A DNA stretch of 64,000 bases from Candidatus Babeliales bacterium (GTDB taxonomy: Bacteria; Babelota; Babeliae; Babelales; JANWKD01), in the NCBI GenBank assembly GCA_963722255.1, contig CAVRJO010000002.1, positions 32,001 to 96,000 on the forward strand. The letters run 5' to 3'. Made by a program: the position numbers and the translations under genes. Under the pieces are notes generated by a model. It was not told the origin of the DNA, did no database searches, and saw only the letters and a program-made list of their open reading frames with translations. Shown here piece after piece: positions 48,780 through 52,746 of the stretch (within the stretch, counting starts at the first letter, position 1; each line of letters starts with the position of its first letter).

Positions 48780-49376
48780 TTAATATTTAATAATTTTTTC
48801 AGCACACATTTCAGCTGCCAAAGAAAGATACGACCAAATTTTGCTGTAATATTGTTCTTTATCAATTAATATCTCAGCAGAATTACCAATTTTTTCAGCG
48901 ATCATTTTTGGAATATTGTTTAAGTCATCTTTAGTAGTAAGCCCAGCAATATCAAGTACAAATTGGTCTACAGAATGTTCGCGTTCTATAAGGGCATAAC
49001 AATAATCTATAACGAATCGTGTATCAATAAACTTTCGATCTAATCCATAATAAATAACTTTCCATTGTTCAATAGTTTCAAGTTCTATTATTTTTTTTAT
49101 TAAACAATCTTTATTTTTCACAATTAAATTTTCGTCATCATATAAACGAAAGTCAGATTCTTTAATAAAATACCCTTTAAAATACTGATGTAATTTCTCT
49201 TTAAAACAATTAAAATGTGACCAAAAGGTTTGATTAGTTCCCATTTTATTAATTATGTCTTCATTCAAAGAAACATTAATCATGACAGGATCAGTTGTAT
49301 TTTCAATTATTTTTTGATTACAAAAACAACAACGGAATCCAAATTTTTCATCAAATTGTCCATCCATAATTTTCAC
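48780..49376 (-). CDS. Putative immunity protein (N-terminal CxxC...HxxC domain plus DUF2247-like domain)
   Basis: Overlaps the toxin stop; CCFC...QTFWSHFNC; WKVIYYGLDRKFI...VIDYC. Confidence 0.6.
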   Translation of the reverse strand: MKIMDGQFDEKFGFRCCFCNQKIIENTTDPVMINVSLNEDIINKMGTNQTFWSHFNCFKEKLHQYFKGYFIKESDFRLYDDENLIVKNKDCLIKKIIELETIEQWKVIYYGLDRKFIDTRFVIDYCYALIEREHSVDQFVLDIAGLTTKDDLNNIPKMIAEKIGNSAEILIDKEQYYSKIWSYLSLAAEMCAEKIIKY

Positions 49377-52300
49377 CTAAGTTTTTAATTTTTTTCAAAG
49401 CAAGGTCTTTCATCGCACTGACAACTTCTTTGGCTTTTTCATTGATTATCATAATAGCATATTTTTCATTAAATTTCTTAATATATACATCTGCACCATC
49501 CCTTTGTACTCTTCTAAAATCAGGGTTTTGAACAAGCTCTTTTATAATATCTGGAGTAAAACCTCTTTCAATTAATCTTTGTAACCCATGTTCAGTAACA
49601 TTAATAATTTTTTTAATTTCATTAGCTTGATGTTCATAAAGCCCCTTAGCTTCTTCACTTTGGAGCTCGTTTTTTAATTTTTCAAATTTTTCTGGACAGC
49701 TTGGCGGACATTCTGCAATGTTATTTTGCACTGTTTCTTTGGCTGCCAGTCCTTTCTCAGCAATAACTTCAGCAACTGCGGCTTGAGAAAGGATTGCAGT
49801 TGAAACTCCAGGATTAACAACAAGAGGCTCAGAAACAGTTGTTGGCAATGCAGATTCTTTTGCAACTGCCCTAATCGCTTGTTCTGCTGTATTTTCTACA
49901 GCTGCAGGCAGCCTGCTTTCAGCAGCACCTTCAACAAGCGCAGCAAAATTGAAAGAAGTCGATGGTCTAGGATTGTCACATACCTCAACAGTTATTACTT
50001 GAGGCCTATAAGGAATATTTCTAAGTGTTCTGTGATATTTGGCAAAATTAAATGTTTTAAATGCCCCTGCAATTGAAAGATAATCCACAAAACCATCGAT
50101 GGCGATTTGAGCAAACAATTTTTGACGTTGATCTATTGATAGATTATTAAAATGATGGTGAATTCTTGTTAATTCTGTAATTGGCGTTTCACCGGATATC
50201 AATTCATGAGTGGTTTGAACTAATATTTTAACTGCGTTATCAATTTTTCTATATTTTTCAAGAAAAGGTAGATCAGATGATGCTAATGTGCCTATCTCGT
50301 CACATTTTTTGACAATTACTTGAACAGATCGAATCATAGTTGATGCTTGTCTCTTGGGAAATTCACATAATGCACCAAAAATAGCATCAAATCGCCTTTG
50401 TGAATACCCTAATGGATTGGAAACCGTATCAACAATTTCATTGCCAACTGCTTTTGCTAATGATATGGGATTTAGAAACTCAAATAAGTCTTTTATCTCT
50501 CGAGCAAGATCTGTATAGTTTCTTCTATTTAAATCATAAGCAGTTTTAAAAAGCTCTTGTTGCATTTCGCGAACATGAGGCGCAACTTCAATGCCAAGAT
50601 TAGAGGCATTTTCAATAGCTTTAGAAAGGGTTTTATGGAATTCCTCTTGTTCAGCACTTCCTTTAAAATCATTATATTCATTGGGATTAATACCGATCTG
50701 ATTAAGAAAATCATTGGTGCGGTTAGTTTTAATCAAATCCAACGAATCAAGAGAAGGCTCTGCTAGATTAATTGTAGGATCGTAGGCTTCCGGTTCAATA
50801 ACAGTTTCCGTATCAGCAAAAGTTAGATTATTAGTTTTGAACACATTTGGCTTTGAAGCAAATTCATTATCAGGACCTTTTAGGTTTTTTTCTTCCTTTT
50901 CATGTGCCCTTTTATGTTGTTCGCCTCTATTGCCTAATGATTTATTAAATGATTTATTAACAGATGTTTTCTTTTTGTCCTTGTATTTATCTTTATTTAC
51001 TTGCAGCATATTAGTAAATAAATTAACTACGGGATTAAGATATAAATATTTTAGCCTTTCAAATGCTGCTTTATCGCTATTAAGTTCATAACCAATGTGT
51101 TTAAATCGTTCCTGAATTTCTCGTTTTTTCTTTATTTTAGCGATTCTTGCTTTTTTAAGTTGCTTACGCTCTGATTTTAGTTTTTTTGCTTTTTTTTCTT
51201 CTTCTTCTTCATATGCTCTTTTATATCGTTCACTGATACTGTCTAACGATTTATTAACCTGTGCCTTCTTTTTGTCCTTGTATTTATCCTTGAGCAGTTG
51301 TAATCGATTTGTAAATATGTCAAAAAAAGTAATATTGTTATCAATATCAGCTTTTTTTTCCTTTTTGATATTTTTGTAATCATCAGAATAAAGTAACGCT
51401 TGATCTTCTTGAGAAATATATTCATGTTCTAAACTTCTACGCAGAGCAAGTTGTTCAGGATTTAAATCATCACGAATTCTTAATTGGTGCAAAATGGTTT
51501 GCTCATACTCGCTTTTAATGTGATTAAATCGTTCTTCTGTTTGATTAAAATCATTTCTGCCATAACTACTATCATTGACCGCATCATTTAATGCTTCTCT
51601 ATAATGCTCAGGAATTCTATCATCATTTAAAAAATCACCAATATTTTTACACACATTTGATACCCTAGCCGCTTCTTTAATTCTCTTTTCCTCTTCATAA
51701 TTGGGCCAATCCATATTGTCTAATCCCATATGCGATTCTGGCGTATCATCATTATCTCGAGCAGGAGCTAGCTTTCTGACATTCATCTGTTTTGATTGAT
51801 AAGATCTTTGCGTGCTAGTTGGAACTTGTTTTGGCACATTAGTTGAGGGCGAAGAACATATAGTTTCAAATTCACTTTCGTCAATTTCTATAGATTGCGT
51901 TGCCCTTGGAGATGATTCATTCCTTGAATTTGGCAATGAGGAATATTGCATTGTTTGATTGCCACCTGTATAAGGGCGAAGATTTTCGTAGATAGCAGCA
52001 CGAGATACATTACTCGGTACAGCCTTAATAACATTTGATTTTGGAGAATCATTATTGCTAGAATAGGTGCTAGGGCCGCTTAATGAGCCGCTATCACTTT
52101 TTTGTTCATTTATTTGTTTCTTTTCTAACGGTACAGGATTTTTTACAGGAGCAGGAACAGTCTTATTCTTATGATAAGCATCTCTTGCTCGTTTCCCCTG
52201 TCCCGCCTTTCTTTTATTATACTCTATTGCACTTTCTAAAGTTGCTACATCATAGCCAACTGTTCCTCCTGGCCCCGGAGGAAGATTTAAAGGATCTATA

Positions 52301-52746
52301 GAACTTTGCCCTTGCTGTATTGCATTTTTGCAAATATTTTCATGCTTATTGCGAGCGATCAAATTTTTTATAGCCTCATCATGCGATTGAGCATTGGTAG
52401 TTTTCTGAAATAATGAAGGTAAACGATTATCTTCTCTTACAGTTTTTTCATGTGTTTGCGACTCTTGAGAATCATCTTCGGAATATATTTCTAATTGATC
52501 GACAGATTCTAAACCGAGACTCGTCTCTATTATTTGATTTTCAGTCAAAATGGGTCTTACTGTTATTTCAAAATTATCCTTAGAAACCTCATTTACTGTA
52601 ACATCATAAGGAACTCTTGTTTGAGAAGTAAAAAGCTTTTGAAAAAAGCTCTTGTCATCTTTTGGCGTCTCTTCCATTCCAAAGCAAAAAAAATGATAAG
52701 AAATAACAGTTGCTATACAAAAATAGTTATTGAAAAATCGAGGCAT
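49351..52746 (-). CDS. Putative polymorphic toxin with C-terminal DUF4258/BECR-like RNase domain
   Basis: Likely start MPRFFNNYFCIATVISYHFFCFG-ME (GGAG SD); C-terminus VTEHGLQRLIERGFTPDIIKELVQNP...YIKK...IMIINEKAKEVVSA. Confidence 0.65.
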   Translation of the reverse strand: MPRFFNNYFCIATVISYHFFCFGMEETPKDDKSFFQKLFTSQTRVPYDVTVNEVSKDNFEITVRPILTENQIIETSLGLESVDQLEIYSEDDSQESQTHEKTVREDNRLPSLFQKTTNAQSHDEAIKNLIARNKHENICKNAIQQGQSSIDPLNLPPGPGGTVGYDVATLESAIEYNKRKAGQGKRARDAYHKNKTVPAPVKNPVPLEKKQINEQKSDSGSLSGPSTYSSNNDSPKSNVIKAVPSNVSRAAIYENLRPYTGGNQTMQYSSLPNSRNESSPRATQSIEIDESEFETICSSPSTNVPKQVPTSTQRSYQSKQMNVRKLAPARDNDDTPESHMGLDNMDWPNYEEEKRIKEAARVSNVCKNIGDFLNDDRIPEHYREALNDAVNDSSYGRNDFNQTEERFNHIKSEYEQTILHQLRIRDDLNPEQLALRRSLEHEYISQEDQALLYSDDYKNIKKEKKADIDNNITFFDIFTNRLQLLKDKYKDKKKAQVNKSLDSISERYKRAYEEEEEKKAKKLKSERKQLKKARIAKIKKKREIQERFKHIGYELNSDKAAFERLKYLYLNPVVNLFTNMLQVNKDKYKDKKKTSVNKSFNKSLGNRGEQHKRAHEKEEKNLKGPDNEFASKPNVFKTNNLTFADTETVIEPEAYDPTINLAEPSLDSLDLIKTNRTNDFLNQIGINPNEYNDFKGSAEQEEFHKTLSKAIENASNLGIEVAPHVREMQQELFKTAYDLNRRNYTDLAREIKDLFEFLNPISLAKAVGNEIVDTVSNPLGYSQRRFDAIFGALCEFPKRQASTMIRSVQVIVKKCDEIGTLASSDLPFLEKYRKIDNAVKILVQTTHELISGETPITELTRIHHHFNNLSIDQRQKLFAQIAIDGFVDYLSIAGAFKTFNFAKYHRTLRNIPYRPQVITVEVCDNPRPSTSFNFAALVEGAAESRLPAAVENTAEQAIRAVAKESALPTTVSEPLVVNPGVSTAILSQAAVAEVIAEKGLAAKETVQNNIAECPPSCPEKFEKLKNELQSEEAKGLYEHQANEIKKIINVTEHGLQRLIERGFTPDIIKELVQNPDFRRVQRDGADVYIKKFNEKYAIMIINEKAKEVVSAMKDLALKKIKNLGENYGWTI

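Follow-up and report, generated by a model that had tools for sequence, protein, structure and literature searches.

A probable polymorphic toxin–immunity pair in a Dependentiae-type bacterium, with two exchangeable tips on one trunk

Introduction

Do intracellular bacteria of the Dependentiae type carry toxins with exchangeable ends, and at whom would such toxins be aimed? This question is raised by two overlapping genes on the minus strand (48780 to 52746) of a 64,000-nucleotide stretch of DNA from a Candidatus Babeliales bacterium (assembly GCA_963722255.1, contig CAVRJO010000002.1, positions 32,001 to 96,000); we refer to this whole stretch as the window. A preliminary description of the DNA had read the genes as a polymorphic toxin–immunity pair, and all the elements that it described are found where it placed them, on the minus strand. 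We consider it probable that the two genes form a polymorphic toxin–immunity module of a Dependentiae-type intracellular bacterium, with a Sec-exported carrier, an exchangeable ribonuclease (RNase) tip and an overlapping immunity gene, and with rival bacteria as the likely target. The parts on which this reading depends most are the following.

49351–52746, minus strand: toxin open reading frame (ORF), 1131 amino acids (aa) from the ATG at 52746, stop codon at 49351–49353
49744–50826, minus strand: conserved trunk, residues 641–1001, common to the relatives P0003 and P0164, no Pfam family
49717–49944, minus strand: Ala-rich linker, residues ~935–1010, 14–20% Ala per block
49354–49707, minus strand: tip cassette, residues 1014–1131, a leading helix and then a BECR-like core (49354–49611)
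48780–49367, minus strand: immunity gene, 195 aa from the ATG at 49367, stop codon at 48780–48782

The same trunk carries two different tips

We searched for proteins that share the trunk of the window toxin (P0001) and differ in their tips and downstream genes, and found two. P0003 is a paralogue on the other contig of the same genome and begins with a signal followed by S-M-E. It has 46% identity to the window toxin over residues 641–1001 (370 columns) and 39% over residues 284–549, and it diverges right after the Ala-rich linker, at about residue 1001. The end of the likeness, near residues 1001–1010, marks the junction between trunk and tip cassette. The frame of P0003 then enters a 1450-bp insertion sequence (IS) that is present in eight genome copies and is flanked at this site by a 17-bp direct duplication, and it resumes behind the IS as an 87-aa piece, the second tip. 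This tip matches no Pfam family. We found 17 relatives of this toxin-like piece, placed at the C-terminus of longer proteins; they include a protein with a MafB N-domain (P0175) and one with peptidoglycan-binding domains.

P0164 (1092 aa) is intact and combines a leader ending in A-M-E-E with the same trunk and the second tip. It is 43% identical to P0003 over 723 aa and 30.5% identical to the window toxin over 714 aa (residues 99–789 of the latter). Polymorphic toxin systems are recognised by variable tips, and here tip A is found on the window toxin and tip B on P0003 (split by the IS) and on P0164 (intact). Furthermore, the second tip is followed by a gene other than the one in the window, namely a full-length DUF2247 gene (74 bits). 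One trunk with two tips and different downstream genes bears out the earlier reading of the locus as a toxin–immunity pair of the polymorphic type. The second tip lies at 8184–8447 of locus L026 (genome contig 1), its relatives are P0162–P0178, and its consensus reads …SALK.D.HHAF.DIID.Y… YQIEGSLNG… FEWIV.P… GVTHR.FI…TGKPN.

The window tip resembles BECR-fold ribonuclease toxins

The tip of the window toxin contains the motif T1051-E-H1053-G-L-Q-R1057-L-I-E1060-R1061-G, and its core residues are T1051, H1053, G1054, R1057, Q1081, D1083, G1084 and a terminal N-Y-G-W. With HMMER we detected 160 relatives at E≤1e-3 among 1.84 billion representative sequences, and half of these (80) reach E≤1e-10. 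The 149 listed relatives, which leave out the toxin's own cluster, are 60–2042 aa long (median 274), and the match lies at most 10 residues from the C-terminus in 145 of them; 32 are of stand-alone size (≤130 aa). Sixty-six relatives are at least 300 aa long; in these we found Pfam matches to RHS repeats (7), PT-HINT (5), PT-TG (2), DUF637 (2) and LysM (1), and the remainder have mostly no Pfam family. Fifty-six of the 66 start with Met, and 30 of these 56 have a signal-like N-terminus, which contains [A/S/G/C]-M-[E/D] in only 4 of the 30. Because of the extreme C-terminal place in its relatives and the PT-HINT, PT-TG, RHS and DUF637 carriers, we conclude from these sequence comparisons that the tip is a polymorphic-toxin C-terminal domain.

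Across 46 aligned members of the tip family, H1053 and Q1081 are invariant, and T1051, G1054, D1083, G1084 and the terminal Y and W are conserved in at least 90%. R1057 is the majority residue at its position and completes, with H1053, the 'H, [KR]' pattern of Ntox49, which is a toxin domain with a predicted BECR fold according to Zhang et al. (PMC3482391). A 2026 preprint (10.64898/2026.08.28.747851) gives DUF4258 the same boundaries as Ntox49 and places it in a colicin-like BECR group. DUF4258 (PF14076) is matched at E≤0.01 by 15 of the 46 members (best 1.2e-7), and the whole window toxin reaches 14 bits against it. Judged by its sequence, the tip is a divergent sister of DUF4258/Ntox49, that is, a relative and no member by Pfam's rule.

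The AlphaFold model of the tip has a predicted local distance difference test score (pLDDT) of 92.5 and consists of the leading helix, helices at positions 39–47 and 52–60, a four-stranded sheet and a last helix at 104–114. When this model was compared to 48,161 chains with VIA, the six best matches were all BECR RNase toxins: colicin D (5znm, Z 6.4, root-mean-square deviation 3.1, 77 aligned), colicin E5 (3ao9, Z 5.8, 24% identity), BrnT (3u97, Z 5.8), a second colicin D chain (1tfk, Z 5.7), a Salmonella toxin (7vd7, Z 5.3) and a CdiA-CT (8ey4, Z 5.3). As these Z values alone are middling, our call of the fold rests on the consistency of the structural matches with the sequence links. We conclude that the modelled tip has a BECR-like fold of the colicin E5/D type. 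The relation to DUF4258 and BECR toxins that had been proposed from the motif thus holds by way of a transitive sequence link (the 15 of 46 relatives) and the model, the tip itself being below the Pfam cut-off. Searches of the PDB were uninformative: the tip sequence matched a designed helical repeat (8g9j, E 7e-4, repeated short helices) and reductoisomerases, and the tip-family profile matched C. difficile S-layer chains (E 0.002, 49 columns).

The N-terminal half of the downstream protein is conserved next to the tip

The downstream protein is composed of two parts.

49128–49367, minus strand: N-terminal ~80 residues, zinc-finger-like (C-C-x-C ... H-x-x-C), the candidate cognate partner of the tip
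48819–49067, minus strand: C-terminal half, residues 104–186, a partial Imm38/DUF2247 domain

We searched 260 other genomes of the phylum and found the tip at 16 places in 14 genomes. At 15 of the 16 places, the tip is immediately followed or overlapped by a homologue of the immunity N-domain (13 pairs confirmed by BLAST on the fetched loci, two by coordinates only); the one exception, a partial match of 65 residues, lies in a frame of 80 aa. In the window, the two genes overlap by 17 nt, and the immunity ATG lies within the toxin's last N-Y-G-W codons. Several of the N-domain partners in the other genomes likewise start with M-D-G within these codons. Matches to the immunity protein were found in 34 of 261 genomes (this one included) and mostly cover only residues 1 to ~85, in small ORFs of 70–100 aa.

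The C-terminal half passes the Pfam cut-off for PF10004 (34.4 bits compared to 25) and covers profile positions 11–89 of 158. A BLASTP comparison of the immunity protein to the genome's full-length DUF2247 protein was not significant (E 0.072). Close relatives (59–68% identity) retain the fusion of zinc-finger-like and Imm38 parts. Since an N-domain homologue adjoins the tip at 15 of 16 places in other genomes, we conclude on sequence grounds that the N-terminal half is the probable cognate immunity and the Imm38/DUF2247 half an added second module. The proposal that the downstream gene confers immunity is supported by its conserved neighbourhood and has to be narrowed: it would apply to the N-terminal half and not to the Imm38 half.

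Residues C13, C14, C16, P27, F48, H51 and C54 are invariant in 22 N-domains, which gives a C-x2-C … H-x2-C pattern. We tried the PARP-type zinc finger (PF00645) as a candidate family and rejected it: the N-domain shows its ligand pattern and scores 12.5 bits compared to a cut-off of 39.3. A weak match to the same family, under the cut-off, occurs in nine of the 22 N-domains (best E 9.8e-4). The best structural matches of the N-domain are assorted zinc fingers with Z≤2.9, including PARP fingers with Z 2.4–2.6, and its nearest ESM Atlas clusters are unnamed proteins of 73–79 aa. Two things are new here: the family of zinc-finger-like immunity domains, unnamed in Pfam, and its fusion to Imm38.

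We also modelled a complex of tip residues 30–118, immunity residues 1–80 and zinc, which scored a median of 0.48 (0.48, 0.54 and 0.44); the highest of three controls scored 0.01. The runs have at least 85% of their contacts in common, and the partner pLDDT is at least 76. In the calibration of the tool, 116 of 157 solved complexes passed the mark, as did 2 of 215 mismatched pairs; these counts are rough for the present case because a small molecule and our own alignments were used. Passes at ≤0.60, which comprise only 18 of the solved complexes and both of the passing mismatches, are more often wrong than right unless the pairing is likely beforehand. Here the pairing is likely beforehand because of the conserved neighbourhood.

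The carrier is specific to the lineage

The following regions precede the trunk.

51712–52671, minus strand: low-complexity, probably disordered region, residues ~26–345, with 32–54% S/T/N/Q/P/G per 50-aa block and no Pfam match
50887–51321, minus strand: charged region with an internal duplication of ~45 aa (residues 476–518 and 575–620; local alignment score 122)

Each copy of the duplication contains KDKYKDKKK once, at residues 486–494 (51265–51291) and 585–593 (50968–50994). Neither the toxin nor the immunity protein has a match in NCBIfam, and we found none of the RHS, CdiA, LXG, PAAR or MuF domains in the toxin with Pfam or NCBIfam, in agreement with the preliminary description. Protein searches for relatives of nearly the full length returned only the paralogue P0003. 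The trunk has no match at E≤1e-5 in the 260 other genomes of the phylum, and a BLASTP comparison of the toxin to a protein with an Ntox35 tip in genome G109 was not significant. Matches of residues 630–1010 in the ESM Atlas (EndoU, MafB and PT-TG clusters) all scored below 0.9, and we treat them as leads only. The trunk of about 1000 aa, which contains no known domain, is new.

The Met-Glu leader marks ordinary export

The N-terminus of the toxin has two elements.

52678–52746, minus strand: start codon and signal-peptide-like residues 1–23, MPR and a hydrophobic stretch ending in C-F-G
52672–52677, minus strand: Met-Glu, residues 24–25, directly after the signal-like stretch

A longer frame of 1162 aa, with a GTG start at 52839, begins within a neighbouring IS3-type element that ends at about 52814. 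The relative P0164 starts at the Met equivalent to ATG 52746, and its first 26 residues are 46% identical to those of the window toxin. ATG 52746 is thus the likely start of the toxin. The N-terminus is signal-like and followed by the Met-Glu junction of the lineage, as in the leader of P0164, with a hydrophobicity below par.

Genome-wide, Met-Glu follows just after a hydrophobic N-terminus in 135 of 850 such ORFs, compared to 10.4 expected from the frequency of the dipeptide elsewhere in the same proteins. Of these 135, 128 have A, S, G or C ahead of the Met. The window toxin is not among the 135, as its hydrophobic core is under the genome-wide cut-off. The Met is usually at residue 18–23, and M-N, M-Q and M-D are enriched too. 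Six other ORFs of the window have a signal-like start with Met-Glu (59795–61093, 39687–40835, 40861–41646, 6221–7129, 3740–5827 and 1772–3382, all on the minus strand), and two of the six encode ankyrin-repeat proteins.

It had been suggested that the Met-Glu signal peptide is used instead of a known delivery domain. This suggestion does not hold. A signal peptide alone is the commonest export route of polymorphic toxins (Zhang et al. 2012, PMC3482391), and Met-Glu occurs throughout the genome. Given 135 ORFs with Met-Glu compared to 10.4 expected, ankyrin-repeat proteins among them, the sequence data indicate that Met-Glu marks ordinary Sec export in this lineage, is common to effector-like proteins and the toxin, and is no stand-in for a delivery domain. 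Zhang et al. furthermore report constant N-terminal parts that follow a signal peptide and are peculiar to a lineage (MafB-N, Microscilla-N and APD1/2; PMC3482391). The genome encodes two secretins.

Orphan immunity genes and immunity arrays in kin

In genome G109 (locus L025) and in the metagenome contig L027, both of the same family, a signal-bearing protein of ~900 aa with an Ntox35 tip is followed by TPR-like genes and then by a homologue of the immunity gene. This homologue at the end of the array is intact in L027 and broken by an internal stop in G109. In the fetched loci of seven further genomes, the N-domain has no detected tip next to it; in at least four of these genomes it stands behind a different toxin–immunity pair. 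Orphan and poly-immunity genes of this kind are thus found in kin and not in the window itself. A metagenome scan with the single protein found nothing and a scan with an alignment found one contig; a contig scan with the smaller alignment A4 found two loci, which are duplicates of those in G088 and G187.

Three further observations concern such loci. A third DUF2247/Imm38 gene on genome contig 2 (632908–633399; L040 1480–2019; 58.9 bits) is an orphan with no recognisable toxin gene upstream. At L010 2174–3223 and L019 2103–3164 (minus strand), another toxin-like C-terminus (…GKFG…W HD… DY.PGKG.HINITDYR…) precedes a gene of ~152 aa, behind which lies an orphan zinc-finger immunity domain. The large signal-bearing toxin genes in kin are each directly preceded and overlapped by a gene for an AAA-type ATPase of ~375–395 aa with a signal-like start (L025 4654–5838; L027 1421–2560 and 8027–9151). 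Two such ATPase and toxin cassettes lie on one contig, and the ATPase may be a dedicated toxin helper. No AAA-type ATPase gene adjoins the window toxin, where an IS is found instead.

The pair lies between mobile elements

The surroundings of the pair contain the following features.

52814–54125, plus strand: insertion sequence of the IS3 family, orfA 52855–53181 and orfB 53202–54083, Pfam HTH_Tnp_1 and rve
52810–52839, minus strand: best promoter-like site upstream of the toxin, GTGTCA-18-TATAAT, straddling the end of the IS3-type element
48747–48772, minus strand: terminator-like G+C-rich hairpin and T-run, 8 nt past the immunity stop, from a consensus scan only
47803–48449, minus strand: IS200-type element, Y1 transposase 47884–48342, Pfam Y1_Tnp 125 bits

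The IS3-type element ends 68 nt upstream of the toxin ATG. The genome (1.62 Mb, 34% G+C, two contigs) contains eight near-full-length copies of it, including that in the window, and two fragments of ~0.5 kb, with at least 99.6% identity. The IS200-type element is 330 nt downstream of the immunity gene, and more copies of it exist elsewhere in the genome. Terminator-like sites numbered four in the consensus scan, compared to 2.5 ± 1.6 in shuffled sequences. Promoter-like sites were not enriched over shuffled sequences (25 compared to 20.1 ± 5.4), so that the GTGTCA-18-TATAAT site is a lead only; it may be a hybrid promoter made by the IS insertion.

The IS load is heavy for a genome of 1.6 Mb: next to the IS3-type copies and fragments, there are eight copies of the 1450-bp rve-type element and three to four of the IS200 type, and nearly all copies are 99–100% identical to one another. 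Elsewhere in the window, a giant ORF of 4436 aa (26234–39544, minus strand) lies in a stretch with a clearly raised G+C content (0.39–0.45 compared to ~0.33 around it). The only confident Pfam match of this ORF is a C1q domain at the very C-terminus (E 1e-8). An ORF of 1240 aa (42148–45870, minus strand) has no Pfam family at E≤1e-3.

Proposed mechanism and alternative explanations

In the mechanism that we propose, the toxin would be exported by Sec, and its signal peptide would probably be cleaved directly ahead of Met-Glu, as in over 100 further proteins of the genome. The carrier is lineage-specific and is built from the probably disordered third, the charged region with its duplication, the trunk and the Ala-rich linker. 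At its end sits an exchangeable cassette of ~118 aa, whose core is predicted to be a BECR-fold ribonuclease of the colicin E5/D kind, from a branch related to DUF4258/Ntox49. The tip would most likely cut RNA (tRNA, rRNA or mRNA) in the cytoplasm of the target cell by means of Thr-x-His ... Arg ... Gln-x-Asp. The overlapping immunity gene is probably translationally coupled, and its product would stay in the cytoplasm of the producer because it has no signal peptide. There, its N-terminal zinc-finger-like domain of ~80 residues would bind and block the tip, and the C-terminal Imm38-like part would probably add cover against a second type of toxin. The most likely targets are related bacteria in the same host cell or habitat; we favour this role because orphan immunity genes are stockpiled in kin. 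A more far-reaching version is that Dependentiae fight each other with diffusible colicin-like toxins, which leave through Sec and a secretin and enter by means of the disordered and helical trunk, that the zinc-finger immunity proteins of ~75 residues are maybe nucleic-acid mimics, as hinted by their PARP-finger-like ligand pattern, and that the Met-Glu exposed by signal cleavage belongs to a lineage-wide code for sorting or stabilisation, common to toxins and host effectors. We regard this version as speculative and rather doubtful.

Several results weigh against the reading of the pair as a toxin–immunity module aimed at rivals. The tip alone is under the Pfam cut-off of 25 bits, scoring 18.7 bits (E 0.0022) against DUF4258 and 16.3 bits (E 0.012) against Colicin_E5 (PF12106). 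VIA itself calls Z values of 5.3–6.4 middling, and Foldseek with the tip model found no match in the PDB at E≤1e-3; its first rows, all weaker than this, are colicin E5, CdiA-CT and colicin D. The model of the N-domain is of low quality (pLDDT 65.8), its structural matches do not exceed Z 2.9, and the verdict of the tool on the predicted complex is only 'weak support'. With Pfam, no receptor-binding or translocation domain is recognisable in the trunk, and no entry route into the target is evident. The signal-like stretch is weaker than in the 135 counted ORFs (Kyte-Doolittle ~1.7 compared to a cut-off of 2.0, calculated by hand). The IS 68 nt upstream of the start codon may have removed the native promoter or changed expression, and we found no RNA data for the locus among the sequencing runs.

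The toxins of intracellular bacteria are, moreover, mostly aimed at hosts, as Zhang et al. argue (PMC3482391), and the pair could instead comprise a host-directed effector, whose RNase tip would be released by Sec inside a protist and attack host tRNA or rRNA, so as to halt or remodel the host, with an immunity protein that serves only for self-protection against toxin already folded ahead of export, in the manner of barnase and barstar. The lineage lives inside protists, and the leader of the toxin, signal and Met-Glu, is the same as that of the two ankyrin-repeat proteins in the window; signal-peptide ankyrin proteins are taken as host effectors in Dependentiae (PMC6561590). Weighing against this explanation are the N-domain genes that lie apart from tips (in seven genomes, in arrays in at least four) and the full-length orphans in G109 and L027. 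Stockpiled immunity points to protection against toxins from outside, and self-protection alone would not explain it. In addition, tip relatives on RHS, DUF637 and PT-HINT carriers are typical of toxins used by bacteria against bacteria. We consider a host-directed effector unlikely, albeit an alternative to be taken seriously.

The mobile elements raise two other explanations. As IS200-type and IS3-type elements bracket the pair, it could act mainly as a selfish module for addiction or stabilisation within a mobile region, the N-terminal part of the toxin having another role, e.g. at the cell surface or in adhesion. Short stand-alone toxins are also found among DUF4258 proteins, 32 of the 149 tip relatives are of such a size, and the family appears to be treated as a toxin of toxin–antitoxin systems in several papers. 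However, an addiction module leaves no place for a signal-like leader and a conserved carrier of 1000 aa with exchangeable tips, and with IS copies so abundant in the genome, their flanking position says little. The toxin gene might also be a decaying remnant that is no longer expressed or active, like the paralogue P0003 interrupted by its IS; the nearby IS upstream and the internal stop in the immunity homologue of G109 would fit such decay. Yet both frames are intact (1131 and 195 codons), the tip keeps all invariant or nearly invariant residues of its family, and the conserved gene overlap is kept; a promoter-like site that spans the IS junction is weak evidence in the same direction. Because both frames and all conserved residues are intact, we regard decay as very unlikely and an addiction module as highly improbable.

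Comparison to known systems and implications

The polymorphic module that we propose is similar to colicins E5 and D, which are among the best structural matches of the tip (Z 5.7–6.4), in its long carrier with a disordered N-terminal part, its C-terminal RNase and its immunity gene directly downstream. Colicins differ in that they are not known to carry a signal peptide; they are encoded on plasmids and leave the cell through the action of lysis proteins. Furthermore, the identity of the tip to colicins E5 and D is only 19–24%, and its Colicin_E5 Pfam score is below the cut-off. With CdiA-CT/CdiI the pair shares a BECR-type RNase tip with an immunity gene behind it; the structural matches include 8ey4 and 5i4q, and two relatives of the tip carry the CdiA-type module DUF637. 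In contrast to CdiA, there are no filamentous-haemagglutinin repeats, no DUF637 and no TpsB partner gene at the locus (for TpsB this refers to the locus, not to the whole genome).

Like Ntox49/DUF4258, the window tip is placed at the extreme C-terminus, has a conserved His and Arg and a BECR-like model, and belongs to a family with RHS, HINT or signal-peptide-only carriers. Unlike these, it is below the Pfam cut-off and has an additional conserved Gln-x-Asp-Gly and the terminal N-Y-G-W. Its partner is zinc-finger-like and unnamed, whereas the immunity listed for Ntox49 is Imm22 (Zhang et al.). The organisation resembles that of MafB, Amoebophilus APD1/APD2 and Microscilla-N, which combine a signal peptide, a lineage-restricted constant region and an exchangeable C-terminal toxin (PMC3482391). 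For MafB the resemblance extends to the second tip of the trunk family, which is also found on the MafB-N protein P0175. In contrast, the trunk resembles neither MafB nor APD nor any Pfam family, and the Amoebophilus proteins are without immunity genes according to Zhang et al. (PMC3482391), unlike the window pair.

DUF2247 corresponds to Imm38, which is frequent in heterogeneous poly-immunity loci (Zhang et al., PMC3482391). The window immunity protein is similar in that its C-terminal half passes the cut-off for PF10004 and that kin loci are poly-immune. It differs in covering the profile only partially and in being fused behind another domain. Furthermore, the printed links of Imm38 are to Ntox19 and NGO1392-like HNH toxins and not to Ntox49, and the conserved neighbourhood pairs the tip with the other half of the protein.

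A full-text literature search found no paper that combines 'Dependentiae' and 'polymorphic toxin'. The design principle, the toxin fold and the export route are known, and the phrase 'undescribed toxin class' of the preliminary description does not hold; the lineage, the trunk, the immunity family and the Imm38 fusion are new. The gain is incremental, since the design principle and the toxin fold were known already. Nevertheless, the locus offers a compact RNase tip, a new small immunity domain that is predicted to bind zinc and a natural fusion of two immunity domains, and the carrier of ~1000 residues without a known domain must hold whatever delivery function exists.

Our findings extend the range of polymorphic toxins to Dependentiae, where conserved immunity genes and poly-immunity arrays accompany them. 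Toxins are usual and immunity genes are scarce in intracellular bacteria according to Zhang et al. (PMC3482391), who read this as an absence of conflict among conspecifics. The stockpiled immunity genes argue that Dependentiae parasites do meet hostile kin.

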